In this document: positions 5,351 to 44,186 of the stretch, piece by piece
Layout of the letters: each line of letters begins with the position of its first letter
Numbering within the stretch: position 1 is the first letter of the stretch
Assembly: GCA_964016885.1 (NCBI GenBank)
Contig: OZ024756.1
Span: 20,150,001-20,214,000 of the forward strand
DNA length: 64,000 bases
Source: Eledone cirrhosa
Lineage: Eukaryota
Reading direction: 5' to 3'
Program-made: the position numbers and the translations under genes
Notes under the pieces: model-generated
Told to the model about the DNA's origin: nothing
Seen by the model: only the letters and a program-made list of their open reading frames with translations
Database searches by the model: none

Positions 5351-6330
5351 CTGTAAATACACACAGTTTCAGTCAGGGGATTAGTAATTTTAAAAACACA
5401 TAGGAGATTAGTAATATTTTTAAAAAGATGAGATTCGTAATTTAAAAGAAAACAGGGGATTAGTCATTTAAAAACAAAACATTCTACAAGATCACCTTTT
5501 ACATTGAAAAAAATTCTAAAATCTCTACATATTTTTGATGTTGAAAAAAGAATCTCCACTCTAGCATTGAAGCCCCCACCCCCACCCCACCACCACCACT
5601 TTTTGATAAAAAAAAAAAATGGTAGCATAAGAATGACACAAGATATTCTGCTCTGGATTAGTTTCTTAGATTATTCTTTTGATGAAGGGATTTATTCCCG
5701 AAATATTAAAGACTATTAAATAACTCCAAGGTAACATTCCAACATCTTTGGTATCATTGGGTTGGTAATCCTGTGATAGACTGGCATCCTGTCCAGGGAG
5801 AGTCTTGTACTCAGTCGTTTAAAAGCAAGGGGATAAGCATGGCCTGATGAGCCTTCGTGGTGGATTGGCAGTATTGGTAGAGCGTCGGACACCATGCTTT
5901 GGATCATGGAGTTACTCCCTTTTATGATCTGAGTTCAAATTCCGTCGAGGTTAACTTTGCCTTTCATCCTTACGGGGTTGATAAAATAAAGTACCAGCAA
6001 TGCACTGGGATAATTGCTGGCCTTGTGCCAAAAGTAGAAACAATTATTTTTTTAACATTTAATACACCACCCACTCTAGGATTTGAACTCACGATTTTAT
6101 GATCCTGAGCAAAACACACCATCTAAGCCACACACCATCTCTGATACATAATACACAGGCAAAAGACTATATATTTTTAACAAATGACCATATAATCCTG
6201 TGGTAACTTATACAATACATGTCTGAATATAAAGTTTAATTCTTTTTTTATAACTTTTATGAATTTTTATAAAGTTATTTACATATTGATTATTGGCAAA
6301 AATTGTAAATAAAATTGGATGACGAAACAA

Positions 6331-7445
6331 GAGAGTCACACCAGGTAGAGCCACTACTGCTCCGAATTGAGAGACCACAGCTCTGATACTATGGACATGT
6401 GGTTAGAATGTCTCAGGATAGAATCACTGGACAGATTTGTAGCTTGGAGATCAGAGAGTCACACCAGGTAGAGCCACTACTGCTCCGAATTGAGAGACCA
6501 CAGCTCTGATACTATGGACATGTGGTTAGAATGTCTCAGGATAGAATCACTGGACAGATTTGTAGCTTGGAGATCAGAGAGTCACACCAGGTAGAGCCAC
6601 TACTGCTCCGAATTGAGAGACCACAGCTCTGATACTATGGACATGTGGTTAGAATGTCTCGGGATTGAATCACTGGACAGATTTGTAGCTTGGAGATCAG
6701 AGAGTCACACCAGGTAGAGCCACTACTTCTTCGAATTGAGAGACCACAGCTCTGATACTATGGACATGTGGTTAGAATGTCTCAGGATAGAATCACTGGA
6801 CAGATTTGTAGCTTGGAGATCAGAGAGTCACACCAGGTAGAGCCACTACTTCTTCGAATTGAGAGACCACAGCTCTGATACTATGGACATGTGGTTAGAA
6901 TGTCTCAGGATAGAATCACTGGACAGATTTGTAGCTTGGAGATCAGAGAGTCACACCAGGTAGAGCCACTACTTCTTCGAATTGAGAGACCACAGCTCTG
7001 ATACTATGGACATGTGGTTAGAATGTCTCGGGATTGAATCACTGGACAGATTTGTAGCTTGGAGATCAGAGAGTCACACCAGGTAGAGCCACTACTTCTT
7101 CGAATTGAGAGACCACAGCTCTGATACTATGGACATGTGGTTAGAATGTCTCAGGATAGAATCACTGGACAGATTTGTAGCTTGGAGATCAGAGAGTCAC
7201 ACCAGGTAGAGCCACTACTTCTTCGAATTGAGAGACCACAGCTCTGATACTATGGACATGTGGTTAGAATGTCTCAGGATAGAATCACTGACAGATTCGA
7301 CGAGCAAAACCAACTGGCAGAAGACCCAGGGGTAGACCCTGAGCGAGATGGTTGGATAACGTCCATGAGCTTGGCTTGTTATGCTTGGGGGATCCAGTTG
7401 GAGAGGGTTGTTTCTGGCAGGACCTGCTGGAAGGAGTGTGTAAGG
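6331..7445 (+). repeat. About 8 x 123-bp tandem array of an RTE-LINE 3' segment, followed by the LINE 3' end
   Basis: Period measured 6331 to 6454. Unit encodes a disrupted LLLRIERPQL*YYGHVVRMSQDRI. Confidence 0.85.
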
Positions 7446-8844: not shown

Positions 8845-11360
8845 CTTTCTATTTATTTGCCACCAAGGCATCAAAGATTGGGACAAATACAAGGGGGGGG
8901 GGGGGTGATTACATACATTTCAAAGGACGTGTAAAAATATAACAAATAAAATTCAACAATCGAAGTCCTCAATAGGGAGGGGGCATTGACGTAGGTCGCA
9001 CCAACCCTCTATAGAATGTTGAGGTTGAGTCTCCAATGATTGCCGGGTCCGCTTGCCAGAGGGCTGTGAGCGCCTGGGCACATTCAATGTGCCAGTCGCC
9101 CATTTTTCTCGGTCTTTGCTTGACCCAGGATTGCAGCTTGGTGAGTGAGACGAGTCTCGGAAAGGCTCGCCTCACAAAAGGGGCCCACACCGGCTGACCG
9201 GCGAGGAATACCTGGAGATGCCGTAGACTTAATGCGTGTCCACGCATCATCAGCTACGGCATCCCCAGCCCTCCGTTCGAAGGGTGTTGACAGCAGATGG
9301 ATCTTCTCACCAAAGGGGTCCACTTCTTCCAAAGGAATCGGAAGAGCGCACACTCCGTTTTGGCGAGCGTTTTCGCTGGGCAAGGCACGACGGTCAAGCG
9401 GTAATAGATGATGGATGCTATATAAGTGTTCGCCACCTCCGCTCGACCTTTCAGCGATAGTTTGCACTCGGCCCACTTCTGAGCGAGTGCAAACACCCTG
9501 CCGGTTACCTTGTCCCAGTTTTTCTCCACCTGGAGGTCCGGTCCGAACCAGACCCCGAGCAGCTTCACCGGTCCCTTCGTCCAGCGTCCGACGACGCCGT
9601 CGGAGGGCATCAGTTTCCTCTCCACGTTCCGAGTTGCAAACCGACGGACTTGTCCCGGTTCAGCTTGGCTCCTGTAAACCTTTCGTATTCCTCCAGTAAG
9701 GACGTGTAAAAATATAACAAATAAAATTCAACAATCGAAGTCCTCAATAGGGAGGGGGGCATTGACGTGGGTCGCACACAGCCCCCCAAAAAATGTGCAA
9801 CCCTCCTCCTCAGGAGCACAAAGAGCGGGTGCTCCCTTCCTCTCCTCTTTCTTCTCCTCTCTCATCCGCTCAGGTTCAAGGATCACGCGTCCATCCTGGT
9901 CCTTCAAAGACCGAATTGTGGACTTGTTTCCACTTTTTGCCTCTGCCACTTGGGCCCAGCTAACAGCTTTGGCTCCCTCGTTACCCAGAGCACGTATTTT
10001 ACTCCCGACAACGCAGCCGTCGTGTTTCGCGTGAAAGAACTGGTCTAAGGCCATTCTTGATGCCAGCACACCGGCCACGTTGCCACACCCAATGGCCTCT
10101 TCTACTCTATCTATCAATTCCCTTTCAGTTCTATTCCTATCTGATGCTAATTCCTGACTAAAACCTATCGATTCTATTCTAATTTGTCTCTTGAGAGCCC
10201 CACCACCTGCTGTTGACTATTGCCCCCGTCAACCGCTGCTTAACTAGAGTGCTAATCCGCTTACTGTAAGCTTTGTTTGTCGGTAAGGACAAGTTTAGCT
10301 TCAAGTAACCGGGTCCTTGTCTATGGGTTCTATCAAGGTTGACCACTCCGGTCACCAACTTGTGATCCGAATAGTCAACCATGAACATTCGTGGACAGCT
10401 TAATATGTCCCTATCCTTATTTCTAACTAGGAACCTATCTAGATACGACCTAGATGTTCCGCTGCGATTAGTCCACGTCCACAGTGGCACAGTCGGAAAA
10501 GATAGATTTGATAGATAGATAGATAGATTTCTTTATTAGCCACAAGGGCGCACAAGAAAAGGGGACAGAACAAAGACATGCCGGGGATTTTACATACAAT
10601 CGTGTAAAAAAATATAAAACAAACAAATATAACAATCGAAATCCCCAATAGGGGGGAGGCGCCACAAATGGGTTGTTTAATACCCCATCGATAGAACAAT
10701 CCCCAACTTCAGGAACGTGTTGTGCAAGTGACCCTTTCTTCCTTTTGCTCTCTTCTTCAACCTACAGGCTTATATACAGAGAAGGCCCAATCACTCGGGC
10801 CATTTTTGCCATAGATAGATATATAAATAGATAGATAGAGTTTATAGATAGATATGTTTCTATTTATTGCCACGAGGGCGCAAAAGAAGGGGACAAGTAC
10901 AAAGGGGGGAGTTTACACAAAAGAACGAGTAAAAAAAACAAATAACAAATATAAAATTAACAATAAAGTCCTCAATAGGGAGGAGGCGTTTTGGAGGGTC
11001 GCACACACCCCCGAAAAAGTGTGCAACCCTTCTCCTCAGGAGCACAGAGAGAGGGTGCTCCCTTGTTCTTCCATCTTTTTCACCTACAGGCTGATATAGA
11101 AAGAAGGCCCATTCACACGGGCCATTCTCGCCACTTTCACCCAGCTTTCATAAAACTGGCTGGGGTGCAGCACCTCTCTCTCCATCCTGATCCTTCTTCT
11201 GAAATGATATTGGAAGAAAAGGACCAGTTGTTGGCCAGAGAGAAAGGTGTCTGACCTCAGTCCTTTCAAATGCGTCCATCATACAACCTCTTTCACCATG
11301 GCGATTACACACAGAAACACCGCCTCTCCTTCATTTTTGAAGGGGGGAGGCGTTATAATG
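8845..11360 (-). mobile_element. Cluster of Tx1/L1-clade LINE fragments (APE endonuclease, RT, C-terminus and at least four 3'UTR segments) interleaved with (GATA)n
   Basis: WTWTN..SYLDRFLV..SDHKLV (APE C-terminus). VKLLGVWFG..NWDKV..LSLKGR..GGLG (Tx1/L1 RT C-terminal region). Repeated 3' end gccytkgtggcaaataaa. Confidence 0.85.
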
Positions 11361-19329: not shown

Positions 19330-19975
19330 TCTTCTTTGCCCACTTATTCCTAAAAGGGTTGTGGAGGCAGAGTTGGCAAATACTCCCTCCAGTGGGTCCT
19401 GTCAGAAGCAACAGTCTACAAGTGGTCTGGCTGGATCCTCAAGCAAGACCAGCCAAGGATGTTATCCAACCCTCTTGCTCAGGGTTTACCCCTTGGTCTA
19501 TTGCCAGTTGGTTTTGCCTGTAATATCTGTCCAGCGATTCTTTCCTGAGACATTCTAACCACATGCCAATAATATCAGAGTTATGATTTCTCAATTAGGA
19601 GAAGTAGTGGCTCTACCTGGAGTGACTCTTTGATCTCCAAGCCACAGATCTGTCCAGTGATTCTTTCCTGAGACATTCTAATGACATGCCCATAGTATCG
19701 GAGCTGTGATCTCTCAATTTGGAGAAGTAGTGGCTCTACCTGGAGTGACTCTCTGATCTCTGAGCTACAGATCTGTCCAGCGATTCTTTCCTGAGACATT
19801 CTAATGACATGCCCATAGTATCGGAGCTGTGATCTCTCAATTTGGAGAAGTAGTGGCTCTACCTGGAGTGACTCTCTGATCTCTGAGCTACAGATCTGTC
19901 CAGCGATTCTTTCCTGAGACATTCTAATGACATGCCCATAGTATTGGAGCTGTGATCTCTCAATTCGGAGAAGTA
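19330..19975 (-). mobile_element. RTE-LINE 3' fragment containing about 3 x 123-bp tandem units
   Basis: ORF 19581-20060 repeats a 41-aa unit LLLQIERSQLRYYGHVIRMSQERIAGQICSSEIRESLQVEP. Confidence 0.8.
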
Positions 19976-21181: not shown

Positions 21182-21255
21182 CGTTGTGACAACATCTCCT
21201 TGCTGATTGCAGGCCTTCTTATCAGAGCTTCATAATGGTGGAACTCCCACAATAG
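21182..21255 (-). CDS. DYNC2H1: DYNC2H1 coding exon 6 (LLWEFHHYEALIRRPAISKEMLSQR), absent from the ORF track
   Basis: Read manually. Homologous to LLQAFLKYKELVKRPTISKELMLER. Acceptor tatAG, donor GTAAA, 74 nt, phase 0 to 2, which fits both neighbouring exons. Confidence 0.9.
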
Positions 21256-21786: not shown

Positions 21787-23830
21787 TTCTTCTTCTTCGC
21801 CCACTTATTCCTGAGTGGATTGTGTGGGCAGTGTCTTCAAACACTCCCTCCAGCGGGTCTTGTCAGAAGCAACCATCTCCAATTGATCCAGTTGGATCCC
21901 CAAGTAAGACCAGCTTAGCTCATGAATGTTATCCAAGCATTTTGCTTGGGGTCTACCTCTGGGTTTCCTGCTAGTTGGTTTTTGCCTCTAAAATCTGTCC
22001 AGCGATTCTTTCCTGAGACATTCTAACCACATGCCCATAGTATCGGAGCTCTGATCTCTCAATTCAGAGATTCTTTCCTGAGACATTCTAACCACATGCC
22101 CATAGTATCGGAGCTCTGATCTCTCAATTCAGAGATTCTTTCCTGAGACATTCTAACCACATGCCCATAGTATCAGAGCTGTGATCTCTCAATTCAGAGA
22201 TTCTTTCCTGAGACATTCTAACCACATGCCCATAGTATCAGAGCTGTGATCTCTCAATTCAGAGATTCTTTCCTGAGACATTCTAACCACACGCCCATAG
22301 TATCAGAGCTGTGATCTCTCAATTCAGAGATTCTTTCCTGAGACATTCTAACCACATGCCTATAGTATCAGAGCTGTGATCTCTCAATTTTGAGATTCTT
22401 TCCTGAGACATTCTAACCACATGCCCATAGTATCAGAGCTGTGATCTCTCAATTTTGAGATTCTTTCCTGAGACATTCTAACCACATGCCCATAGTATCG
22501 GAGCTGTGATCTCTCAATTCAGAGATTCTTTCCTGAGACATTCTAACCACATGCCCATAGTATCAGAGCTGTGATCTCTCAATTCAGAGATTCTTTCCTG
22601 AGACATTCTAACCACATGCCCATAGTATCAGAGCTGTGATCTCTCAATTTTGAGATTCTTTCCTGAGACATTCTAACCACATGCCCATAGTATCAGAGCT
22701 GTGATCTCTCAATTTTGAGATTCTTTCCTGAGACATTCTAACCACATGCCCATAGTATCAGAGCTGTGATCTCTCAATTTTGAGATTCTTTCCTGAGACA
22801 TTCTAACCACATGCCCATAGTATCAGAGCTGTGATCTCTCAATTTTGAGATTCTTTCCTGAGACATTCTAACCACATGCCCATAGTATCGGAGCTGTGAT
22901 CTCTCAATTCAGAGATTCTTTCCTGAGACATTCTAACCACATGCCCATAGTATCAGAGCTGTGATCTCTCAATTTTGAGATTCTTTCCTGAGACATTCTA
23001 ACCACATGCCCATAGTATCAGAGCTGTGATCTCTCAATTCAGAGATTCTTTCCTGAGACATTCTAACTACATGCCTATAGTATCAGAGCTGTGATCTCTC
23101 AATTTTGAGATTCTTTCCTGAGACATTCTAACCACATGCCCATAGTATCAGAGCTGTGATCTCTCAATTCAGAGATTCTTTCCTGAGACATTCTAACCAC
23201 ATGCCCATAGTATCAGAGCTCTGATCTCTCAATTCAGAGATTCTTTCCTGAGACATTCTAACCACATGCCCATAGTATCAGAGCTCTGATCTCTCAATTT
23301 TGAGATTCTTTCCTGAGACATTCTAACCACATGCCCATAGTATCAGAGCTGTGATCTCTCAATTCAGAGATTCTTTCCTGAGACATTCTAACTACATGCC
23401 TATAGTATCAGAGCTGTGATCTCTCAATTTTGAGATTCTTTCCTGAGACATTCTAACCACATGCCCATAATATCAGAGCTGTGATCTCTCAATTTTGAGA
23501 TTCTTTCCTGAGACATTCTAACCACATGCCCATAGTATCAGAGCTGTGATCTCTCAATTCAGAGATTCTTTCCTGAGACATTCTAACTACATGCCTATAG
23601 TATCAGAGCTGTGATCTCTCAATTTTGAGATTCTTTCCTGAGACATTCTAACCACATGCCCATAGTATCAGAGCTCTGATCTCTCAATTTTGAGAAGTAT
23701 TGGTTCTACCTGGAATAACTCTCTGATCTCCATGCTATGCACTCTACCGAGTAATGTTATGCTGAAGACCCCTCGGAGGAACCTCATTTTGGCTACTTAT
23801 TTTGGCAATCTTATCCTTTTGGTCATTACT
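21787..23830 (-). repeat. RTE-LINE 3' fragment with internal 65-bp tandem array of about 26 copies (22005-23695)
   Basis: 22071 to 22201 spans two units. Same LINE family flanks both sides, with a (TTC)n tail at 21787. Confidence 0.88.
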
Positions 23831-24588: not shown

Positions 24589-25326
24589 AAAGAAATTGTT
24601 ATTGAATGAAAAATACATTGTTGTGGCACCTACAAGACCACTTTACTGTGTAGACTGGGTGCCTTTTATCGTGATACCTATATGAGCACTTTATAGTGTA
24701 GGCTAGGTGCATTTTATCTTGACACCTACATGACCACTTTACACACACACATACACACACACATATATATATATATATACACATGTATGTATGTATATAA
24801 ATATATACTGGTAAAATTCCATTAAAACAAATTTTTCAGTATAGCAAAATTTTTCTCAATCCCCAATTTAATAACAATCAAACCTTAGATTTGTTTCGGT
24901 CAATCTCGTTATAAAGAATTTTTCGTTACAACAAATTTTTTTTTATACCCTGTGAATTTTGTTACAATGGAATTTCACTGTATATATATATTATTTTTGT
25001 GAATTTTGTTACAATGGAATTTCACTGTATATATATATTATTTTTGAAAAGCATTTAGAAATGCGCAACCGGTAAAAACTTAAAAACTTAAAACCACAAC
25101 TGAATACTAACCCATACAATTACTAATACTCTTTTATTTCTAATTAAACCATTTTTCAACTGTGAACAATTTGTCAGCATTTTCTATTCCGTTTACCAAT
25201 ATACATATATATATATGTAGGAGGTGAGTTTTATTGTAGTACAATAAAGCAATGCAGATATCGGATAAGAAGCACTCTACAGTTTGTAGGACTGGAGTAT
25301 ACATAATATATAAGATAATATATAAG

Positions 25327-25512
25327 ATAATATATAAGATCAAAAGATGGTTAAAGGAGTTCCATGTATTTTATTATGCGCATTTCAAAAACAAACATCA
25401 TCATGCAATATTATTATAACACAAATATTATTGCATGATGATGTTTGTTTTTGAAATGCGCATAATAAAATACATGGAACTCCTTTAACCATCTTTTGAT
25501 CTTATATATTAT
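25327..25512. repeat. Inverted repeat with 84-bp arms and 18-nt loop, made of two truncated family-A hammerhead cassettes
   Basis: Arms 25327-25410 and 25429-25512. Sequence also present as a direct copy at about 26435-26612. Confidence 0.85.
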
Positions 25513-26560
25513 ATATATATATATATATATATGTATATAGTCTAACCCATGCTAGCATGGAAGATAGATGTTATGAGGATGATGATGATTCATGCATGTA
25601 TGTATATATGTGTGTGTGTGTGTCTATATCATCATCATCATCATTTTACGTCCACTTTTCCCTGCTTGCAAGGGTGGGACGACCATCTCATATTTGTTTT
25701 TTCTTTTGTATATCTTGGACTACATTATTCAATTCCATTTTTTTCTCTATTTCTTTCTTTTTACAAGATAGTAATGTGTGACTTGACAGGGAGACCTGGT
25801 TGATATTTCTATCAGATCAAAAATCCATGTAGAGTCTCCCTCATTTGGCTTGACAATGACAATGACAACGATGATTAAAATGATGGTGATGAAAATAATA
25901 ATTATAAAGAGAATAATGATGATGATGATGATGATATGGAAAACAATAGATTTATAACAGAATTTTACTGACAAAAACAACAAAACAATATAACAGCTTA
26001 ATCTTTTGTTTTTTTCTTTTAGTTTCATATTGTAGTTATTATTATTATTATTATTATTGTTGTTGCTGTTCTTTTACATTCTACCAGCATGTTGCCATTC
26101 TTCATGGCAAAACAAAAGCTCTCATCTTGGCAACAATAAGAATCGTTCTGGCACTTCCATTTTTAAGTAGTCTATGAGACAATTATTTTCTTGAGCGAGA
26201 TACAAGTGACAAGACGCTGTCTACAGAATAACTAGCAATTCCCATCACATTTCATTTCTCTCCAGATCAGGTGCTCAGACCAGCAACTTCAAGACAAGAA
26301 GACTACAAGTCTTTGATTGGTCTATCAAATAATTTCTTCTCCAATGAGTGCTTGTCTGTTATGATACATTACCAGGCAGAGTTGAGCAACAACAGAGAGA
26401 TTTATTCTGATATATATATATATATATATATAATGTAGGAGGTGAGTTTTATTGTAGTACAATAAAGCAATGCAGATATCGGATAAGAAGCACTCTACAG
26501 TTTGTGGGACTGGAGTATGCATAATATAAGATCAAAAGATGGTTAAAGGAGTTCCATATA

Positions 26561-26627
26561 TTTTATTATGCGCATTTCAAAAACAAACATCATCAAGCAA
26601 TAATATTTGTGTTTTCATCAGATAAAA
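26561..26627 (-). ncRNA. Minimal type-I hammerhead ribozyme motif (family A)
   Basis: UUUUAU-CUGAUGA-AAACACAAAUAUUAU(UGCUUG)AUGAUGUUUGUUUUU-GAAA-UGCGCA-UA/AUAAAA. Intact core, 6-bp stem I, 15-bp stem II with one mismatch, palindromic stem/loop III, AUA cleavage triplet. Confidence 0.8.
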
Positions 26628-26837
26628 CAGGAGAACATGATATGAAGGCTAAAAAACACTTGTTGATAGTGCAGTTTTAAATCAACATATGAAAAGTGGT
26701 TTTAGATTGATGTGTGATATTGGGAAAAATATTTTATTTAGAGAGGGGGGGAGAGAAAAGGATGAAAAGGGAAGGAGATGAGAGGGAGAGATGGGTGATA
26801 GAGAGAAAGAGATAGTTTTTATAACCGAGAGAAAATT

Positions 26838-26871
<34 letters not shown>

Positions 26872-27045
26872 AATTTTCTGTGTGTGAGAGAGAGTTGCGT
26901 GTGTTTGAGGGAGAGACTTGTCTGTGTTTTTATGTATGTGTGAGAGTTGCGTGTGTGTGTGTATGAGAGTTATCTGTGTGTGTGCATATTGTTGGGGGTG
27001 GGGGGTGGGGGGTATGTGTGTGAGAGAGAGAGTAGTCTGTGTTGT

Positions 27046-28851: not shown

Positions 28852-29100
28852 CTGTTGTAAGTTTCCCTCGACGTCTTGAACGCGGTGTTTCAGGACTGAG
28901 GCAACTTTCTGCTCAATTGGTGCCAGGACTCTGTTGAACTGTACCACGGCAGCATCCCAAAGAGGTTTTGTGTACGGGTTGTAGAGGATGGGGTTGAGTC
29001 CAGTGAAGGGTCGGAACACCTGTGACATTTTCAGCTCTTGCTGCTCCTGGGAGCTGAGCAAATGAGTAAGTTGCTCGTGGATCGAACGCAAAGTCAGGAC
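28852..29100 (-). CDS. DYNC2H1: DYNC2H1 coding exon 5 (VLTLRSIHEQL...PFTGLNPILYNPYTKPLW...NLQQ)
   Basis: Homologous to PFTGLNPVQYNPYTEPLW. Acceptor cacAG, donor GTAAC, 249 nt, phase 0. Confidence 0.95.
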
Positions 29101-43217: not shown

Positions 43218-43530
43218 TGGTGGTGTATAGAGTGGTGGTGTGTATATATGGTGGTGTATATATGGTAGTGAATATATATATATATATATATACATATATG
43301 TAAGTATGCATGTATACGTACATACATATATGTATACAGACGTACAGTAGCATGCACATATATATATATATACATATGCATACAGGTACACATACATATA
43401 TGCACGTATCAGTTTAGCGGCGCTTATTATAACGTCGCTTTGTTCGTTTGTAAACAAACTGAACAGCCTGAATTTATGCCATACGGTGTTAAGGCAACCA
43501 CGTCACCTTTTTGTTCAACACTGACACAGG

Positions 43531-43575
43531 AACGATGTACTAGTTTCAAGCTTGTTAGCTATCATCAGCACCGTT
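43531..43575 (-). ncRNA. Minimal type-I hammerhead ribozyme motif (family B, sense to DYNC2H1)
   Basis: AACGGUG-CUGAUGA-UAGC(UAACAA)GCUU-GAAA-CUAG-UA/CAUCGUU. 7-bp stem I, intact core, palindromic ACUAGU stem III, GUA triplet. First stem II pair is U.U. Confidence 0.75.
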
Positions 43576-43782
43576 TACCCATCTGCCAGATAGTTGAACG
43601 TTCGAAAGTATATACTCACTAAGAGTGAGAAATGAAATTTCGTTTTCATTTTGTTTCAATTTATCGTTTTCGGTATGCCTGACCGATTTAACTCACTCAA
43701 TATGCAAATTAGGCTGCTCAGCCGTTAATTTTCATAAGGAAAGTATATACTTTCGAACGTTCAACTATCTGGCAGATGGGTA

Positions 43783-43827
43783 AATGGTGCTGATGATAGC
43801 TAACAAGCTTGAAACTAGTACATCGTT
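43783..43827 (+). ncRNA. Minimal type-I hammerhead ribozyme motif (family B, inverted copy)
   Basis: AAUGGUG-CUGAUGA-UAGCUAACAAGCUU-GAAA-CUAG-UA/CAUCGUU. Differs from the other copy by one C/U change that keeps stem I paired as U-G. Confidence 0.72.
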
Positions 43828-44186
43828 CCTGTGTCAGTGTTGAACAAAAAGGTGACGTGGTTGCCTTAACACCGTATGGCATAAATTCAGGCTGTTCAGT
43901 TTGTTTACAAACGAACAAAGCGACGTTATAATAAGCGCCGCTAAACTGATACGTGCATATATGTATGTGTACCTGTATGCATATGTATATATATATGTAT
44001 ATATATATATATATGTGCATGCTACTGTACGTCTGTATACATATATGTATGTACGTATACATGCATACTTACATTTAAGTAAGTGCCATACTAAGAGTGA
44101 GAAATGAAATTTCGTTTTCATTTTGTTTCAATATATACATATATATATACATATATATACATATATACATACATATATATACATAT

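Follow-up and report, generated by a model that had tools for sequence, protein, structure and literature searches.

A hammerhead ribozyme motif in a DYNC2H1 intron of Eledone cirrhosa, probably the tail of a young and abundant Penelope-like retroelement

Introduction

Ultraconserved intronic hammerheads, which lie sense in their host introns, occur in few copies and are conserved across species, are known from amniotes. The hammerhead motif described here, located in a 64,000-nt stretch of the Eledone cirrhosa genome (the window; contig OZ024756.1, positions 20,150,001 to 20,214,000), likewise lies sense in a host intron, that of the dynein gene DYNC2H1, but it is young and one of about 20,000 copies.

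Hammerheads are also found in the pseudo-LTRs of Penelope-like elements (PLEs), where a palindromic stem III is designed to pair between the two halves of a dimer (Cervera and De la Pena 2014, PMC4209133). In that study, cleavage of a single minimal hammerhead (min-HHR) from an S. mansoni PLE was undetectable and dimers cleaved at a low level; the dimer model is given likewise in a review (PMC6765202). The motif at hand shares with these hammerheads the type I topology, a palindromic 15.2-16.2 region and a predicted need for a dimer, while its family shares a hammerhead in both terminal repeats with an RT/GIY-YIG frame between them, a length of about 3–4 kb, thousands of solo truncated copies and close opposite-strand pairs (PMC4209133).

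Among PLEs with a C-terminal endonuclease, the Hydra clade is described as having (TA)n targets and, close to the 3' end, a canonical hammerhead in sense orientation (Craig et al. 2021, PMC8557442), both of which recur here. Non-LTR retrozymes of metazoans (Cervera and De la Pena 2020, PMC7229834) resemble the present family in their type I hammerheads, weak palindromic helix III, AT-richness and thousands of copies; whereas the retrozymes are described as non-coding tandem units of ~300 bp, the motif studied here lies at the end of a protein-coding element. Mollusc retrozymes carry type I hammerheads (PMC7229834), and 235 Rfam hammerhead hits are reported for the giant squid (PMC6962438). Our literature search, whose coverage stopped short of most subscription papers, Repbase and most supplements, found no paper describing this hammerhead family, which may already be catalogued there.

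The hammerhead motif

The motif comprises the following parts:

26559..26629, minus strand: type I hammerhead motif, with a stem I of 8 bp, the core, a stem II of 15 bp and a palindromic stem III
26615..26621, minus strand: core box CUGAUGA (C3 to A9)
26627-26622 with 26566-26561, minus strand: stem I, six A-U pairs; eight pairs if extended, one of them G-U
26579..26614, minus strand: stem II, 3 bp, a C-U mismatch, 12 bp and a 4-nt loop; pair 10.1-11.1 is A-U
26567..26578, minus strand: GAAA box (26578-26575), palindrome and A17
26575-26568, minus strand: self-complementary AUGCGCAU, the stem III region

The hammerhead core is present in full (C3-U4-G5-A6-N7-G8-A9, G12-A13-A14, A15.1-U16.1 and H17), helices I (8 bp) and II (15 bp) can form, with open ends in helix I, and an AUA cleavage triplet places the predicted cut at 26567|26566 on the minus strand. 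A preliminary description of this DNA had reported here a complete minus-strand core, a 6-bp stem I and a self-complementary stem III region, and each was located as described; the 15 pairs of its AU/GU-rich stem II were also recovered (11 A-U, 3 G-U and 1 G-C), divided into 3 + 12 by the C-U mismatch, which it had not mentioned. A type I descriptor gave three matches in the window (a total only) versus one across 200 block-wise dinucleotide shuffles. The 67-nt motif folds no better than its own shuffles (z = -0.94), and a search of the whole window with Rfam at the gathering score, hammerhead models included, matched 0 families. Judged from its sequence, the hammerhead motif in the dynein intron is confirmed as real.

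With 15 bp, the predicted stem II exceeds in length those of the published hammerheads compared, which have 7–8 bp in S. mansoni (PMC4209133) and 3–7 bp in the Hydra-clade families of File S2 (PMC8557442); stem I, at 6–8 bp here, is a further difference from the hammerheads of PMC4209133. With so long a stem II, a loop contact of the standard kind between helices I and II is doubtful. Two further departures from the hammerheads of PMC4209133 are that A9 is followed by 10.1 with no unpaired base between them in the predicted fold, and that the dominant subfamily has A-U in place of the G10.1-C11.1 pair, a pair that the paper terms highly conserved.

The host intron

The assignment to DYNC2H1 rests on these features:

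28852..29100 (about), minus strand: DYNC2H1 exon preceding the host intron (match to human DYNC2H1 at E 3.4e-21; splice sites from sequence)
21182..21255, minus strand: predicted next DYNC2H1 exon, 74 nt
28851-21256, minus strand: host intron, given the predicted next exon, 7,596 nt

The predicted exon was top-ranked in a scan of splice sites and composition, its phase fits both neighbours, and further minus-strand exons match Pfam DHC_N1. Because of the exon match, the predicted next exon and the DHC_N1 exons on the same strand, the hammerhead is taken to be intronic and sense, in agreement with the preliminary description. A search for partners covered 264 kb, made up of the window and 200 kb downstream and containing most or all of DYNC2H1; the 3' part of the gene falls within this stretch, as judged from a same-strand match to Dynein_C at C17:19.98 Mb. 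The 264 kb hold one complete sense copy of the hammerhead family, the window copy itself, and one complete antisense copy ~150 kb away; no second complete sense copy was found in them.

The dynein introns contain other repeats as well. RT-like LINE frame fragments, seen in translations only, lie in other introns (window 8970-10530 and 290-690, both minus strand), related tandem arrays of 123-nt and 65-nt units occupy 6330-7297, 19525-19975 and 22000-23689, and many other minisatellites are present.

Copy number and insertion at this locus

Copies were counted in the 3.0-Gb genome by exact pattern search, with reversed patterns as controls. The core and palindrome together gave 19,889 exact matches (9,968 + 9,921), of which 18,075 were counted when stem I was also required to be exact, and 1,057 copies are identical to window 26545-26643 (99 nt); each of the three reversed controls gave 0. 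A domesticated hammerhead would be expected at low copy number, and 1,057 identical copies are at odds with that. Among the matches listed, many form tail-to-tail pairs, ~170–200 nt or a few kb apart, an arrangement described for Penelope-like elements (PMC8557442).

At the locus itself, the insertion and its borders are as follows:

26431..26831, minus strand: 5'-truncated 3' end (pseudo-LTR and ~90-nt tail) of a Hydra-like Penelope-like retroelement, ~400 nt
26411..26430, no strand assigned: (TA)n tract at the 3' junction of the element
26841..26868, no strand assigned: (AT)14 tract immediately upstream of where the element is truncated at its 5' end

Over 424 nt the window copy shares 96.2% identity with a full-length element (L035) at the latter's 3' end, and over ~400 nt it is 97–98.5% identical to four other copies (L084, L077, L034 and L083). 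Recent insertion accounts for its good preservation; the preliminary description had singled it out as the best-preserved hammerhead, and intact it is, but its youth, evident from the 1,057 identical 99-nt copies, explains this. Family-wide, loose read ends confirm that members often end at the equivalents of 26521-26524 and continue into (TA)n. At the 5' junction of the element, an inverted repeat of 11–12 nt surrounds the (AT)14 tract (window 26830-26880) and may be an insertion trace.

Eight of 11 listed sequencing runs were checked for an empty site, and the insertion was bridged in 0 of the 8: the contigs of one run (X1) end at microsatellites, three (X5-X7) lack coverage of the dynein exon, and in four (X4, X9-X11) the unique flanks at both junctions are uncovered. 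A pile of read ends at 26576 in runs X9-X11 was considered as a ribozyme cut and rejected, the data being RAD-seq DNA.

The parent Penelope-like element

Twelve stretches around paired matches were fetched, and four of them contain a long open frame of the family: 775 residues in L031, 808 in L032, 821 in L035 (800 from the first Met) and 738 in L041. L033 and others of the fetched stretches contain broken or partial frames. In L031 and L032 the frame is flanked by two same-strand repeats, 3,940 and 3,709 nt apart, respectively, and in L035 an inverted 5'-truncated copy adjoins the 5' end. The hammerhead is located in the pseudo-LTR, sense to the RT/GIY-YIG frame, in L031, L032 and L035, and these three, together with a foldback pair in the window (25199-25507), display the pseudo-LTRs, partial tandems and inverted 5'-truncated copies that make up the element structure.

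The protein carries the motifs DKT, MGASD, YRDD, a CxCX5C linker, CxxCxxE and N...CxH, as well as IYECKI...YFGST, a GIY-YIG-like strand pair; GxK[FY] and CX2-5CxxC were not found in it. A homolog search returned 25 proteins with 31–42% identity and a single, uninformative name, and eight relatives, namely seven of these 25 database homologs and L032, were taken into the motif alignment. Atlas neighbours score 0.95–0.98, and some members carry HTH_animal, GIY-YIG or RVT_1. Since Pfam matched 0 families on three element frames and a PDB sequence search returned no hit below E 0.88, the basis for the RT/GIY-YIG call is the motifs, the homologs and the Atlas neighbours, by which the frame is read as a single ORF with an RT and, at the C terminus, a GIY-YIG endonuclease, as in Penelope-like elements.

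By its motif set, the element would belong to the Hydra clade: DKT, CxCX5C, and CxxC and CxH around E and N are all present, and, as described for that clade, there is neither GxKF/Y nor CX2-5CxxC (PMC8557442). It differs from that clade in having RWT (L035) or RWI (L032) at the position of RWK, which is retained in four of the seven aligned homologs, and in its unit of 3.7–3.9 kb, Hydra-clade units being generally <3 kb, a tendency and not a strict rule (PMC8557442). Compared with the entries for Hydra-1_Obim of Octopus bimaculoides in Files S1 and S2 of that paper, pseudo-LTRs are clear here and none are listed there, and the hammerhead sequences differ. Two other identities were discarded: the Neptune clade, a first guess, on the absence of CX2-5CxxC and the presence of Hydra motifs, and a non-LTR retrozyme, on the finding that the family flanks an 800-aa frame and not short non-coding tandem units.

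Conservation of the fold and subfamilies

For an alignment of 44 copies, 43 of 58 distinct variants were combined with the window copy, and variants with truncated flanks, with indels or identical to the window were left out. Of 1,078 cells, 95.8% are paired, versus 36–62% when the partners are slid, with helix I at 98.6% and helix II at 93.7%; core and stem III had been held constant by the patterns used for the search. Two-sided changes occur in only 3 of 25 pairs, a number reached in 181 of 500 shuffles, and go back mostly to one inherited change. Together these figures lend modest family-level support to selection on the fold.

Pair 10.1-11.1 is G-C in 22 of the 44 copies, A-U in 18 and G-U in 4. 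The G-C form makes up 756 of the 19,889 genome matches, and the A-U form dominates the matches listed. Median flank distance is 0.114 among 30 G-C copies and 0.057 among 29 A-U copies, the latter chosen for an exact stem I; because its copies have diverged more from one another, the G-C subfamily is read as older, which suggests that the A-U subfamily is the younger. The window copy, with A-U at this pair, belongs to the subfamily that lacks the conserved G10.1-C11.1 pair.

Partial copies 1.1 kb downstream

Two fragments of the family lie about 1.1 kb downstream of the motif in the same intron:

25199..25415, minus strand: sense partial copy of the element end, starting inside stem II, with the palindrome (25383-25376) and tail, without CUGAUGA
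25418..25507, plus strand: inverted partial copy, the other arm of a foldback, antisense in the pre-mRNA, without CUGAUGA

The 5' strand of stem I is missing from both; the sense fragment has preserved its palindrome together with the opposite, 3' strand of that stem. Lacking CUGAUGA and the 5' stem I strand, the fragments could not catalyse the cut at 26567|26566, and the sense fragment would be at most a substrate, with a predicted cut at 25375|25374. They form a near-perfect foldback of 88–89 bp (window 25327-25512) with a predicted energy of -133 kcal/mol. When 1,511 nt are folded together, the palindrome of the sense fragment is predicted to pair with the antisense arm at P 0.998 and with the full motif at P about 1e-12. 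The antisense arm is also complementary to the full hammerhead (duplex -136 kcal/mol) and would be inhibitory to it. As a structure within a sense intron, the foldback is likely double-stranded RNA and a possible substrate for A-to-I editing or small RNAs.

Weighing the possible readings

With a probability of about 0.85, we read the motif as the hammerhead tail of a young, abundant Penelope-like retroelement that lies in a (TA)n of a DYNC2H1 intron and is likely inert there. Observation extends to the motif, to its position within the terminal repeat of full-length elements, to how many copies there are and to the absence of any complete sense partner in the vicinity. In a parent transcript running through both terminal repeats, 3.7–3.9 kb apart, the two AUGCGCAU palindromes would pair to give 8-bp stems III, and the double hammerhead would cut after each AUA, releasing an RNA of unit length that includes the entire RT/endonuclease frame; in L031 the distance from cut to cut is 3,940 nt, and the ATG lies 215 nt past the upstream predicted cut. 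Short ends like the window copy would remain where reverse transcription at (TA)n targets stopped early. At DYNC2H1 there would then be a lone copy without a stem III, its neighbouring fragments sequestered or inhibitory, and slow intronic cleavage, if any, would probably be no block to splicing. Intronic hammerhead cleavage left splicing efficient and a fast HDV ribozyme abolished it in work cited second-hand from PMC2995048.

That the lone copy slowly cleaves itself as a monomer, with a 2-bp stem III closed by a GCGC loop, nicking few pre-mRNAs and affecting splicing little, seems unlikely, although its core and AUA triplet are intact, stem II is predicted to form (P 0.92–0.98) and invertebrate type I hammerheads with helices III of 2 bp and a tetraloop have been described (PMC7229834). 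Both pairs of the monomer stem III, which encloses 4 nt, are A-U; the predicted P(A15.1-U16.1) is 0.002 and the predicted probability of the active fold 3e-5 in the isolated motif, stem I has a pairing probability of 0.0003 in 361 nt of native context, and folding prediction yielded no stable helix III for the monomer. The absence of the G10.1-C11.1 pair and the undetectable cleavage of the single S. mansoni min-HHR (PMC4209133) also count against monomer cleavage. A palindromic stem III being the published dimer design, a partner would be needed, and on this point the preliminary description, which had called for a second copy, is borne out: two copies would form a stem III of 8 bp where one forms two A-U pairs, and the active dimer is predicted at -32.7 kcal/mol against -10.6 per monomer, energies that are equilibrium predictions with co-transcriptional order, proteins and tertiary contacts outside the model.

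Such a partner might act in trans, with RNA from an active element or another intron supplying the enzyme strand through the palindrome and stem I to an extent that would depend on element expression. Some 20,000 potential partners and an active dimer ~11.5 kcal/mol below two monomers speak for this, but just 16 pairs, mostly A-U, would hold the strands together, a non-catalytic dimer fold at -33.7 kcal/mol is 1 kcal/mol more stable than the active one, published dimers are weakly active even in cis (PMC4209133) and the intron is presumably short-lived, and we consider trans cleavage at this site very unlikely. A bolder proposal is that the ~20,000 self-complementary hammerheads are genome-wide cut sites at which expressed element RNA cuts sense intronic copies in trans. 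In that case, the change from G-C to A-U in the younger, far commoner subfamily and the length of stem II would be marks of selection for a ribozyme that is weaker, relies on a partner and can be tolerated by a gene-rich genome; this, too, is a long shot. The preliminary description had looked to a cis partner instead, suggesting that the partial copies stabilise stem III and let intron cleavage control DYNC2H1 conditionally. The fragments do exist, and the sense one, with its palindrome and 3' stem I strand, could pair as substrate with the full motif as enzyme at -22.6 kcal/mol (pairing alone). The cut would, however, fall at the fragment's own site and not at 26567|26566, the fragment is held in a foldback whose other arm is transcribed first, and both fragments are ordinary ends of a young repeat. 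Because the fragments lack the core box, are locked in the foldback and would be cut at another site, the cis model finds no support; it had also missed that the motif belongs to a set of about 20,000 retroelement ends, and we regard it as extremely improbable.

A second hammerhead family

The window contains a second hammerhead family, represented by a tail-to-tail pair at 43568 (minus strand) and 43790 (plus strand) in a repeat spanning about 43330-44110. Its hammerhead has a 4-bp stem II with a U-U base, a palindromic stem III (ACUAGU) and a GUA triplet, and it gave 12,476 genome matches (control 0). Many copies stand in same-strand tandem arrays whose units of 473–541 nt have (TA)n inside them and in which no long frame is convincing (L111, L112). 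These sequence features suggest a non-LTR retrozyme or else a non-autonomous derivative of Penelope, and the family appears to fit the retrozymes better than does the family of the DYNC2H1-intron motif. It has natural cis partners, and activity and circular RNA would be likelier here than from the motif at 26559-26629. Its sense copy (43568, minus strand) is also inside the DYNC2H1 transcription unit, and the antisense mate comes earlier in the transcript. A possible third, decayed family is represented at window 45559 (minus strand) by a hammerhead-like string consisting of CUGACGA, a hairpin and GAAAC...GUA, with a stem I of about 3 bp.

Implications

For the regulation of DYNC2H1, the motif is most likely of no consequence. 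The role of the hammerheads of Penelope elements is a stated open question in both PMC4209133 and PMC8557442, and for that role the family described here would be a handy test case, with its full-length copies bearing long frames and its G-C, G-U and A-U subfamilies. Its copies are also numerous enough that the depletion of sense versus antisense copies in introns could be gauged, which would indicate whether solo copies cut host transcripts.
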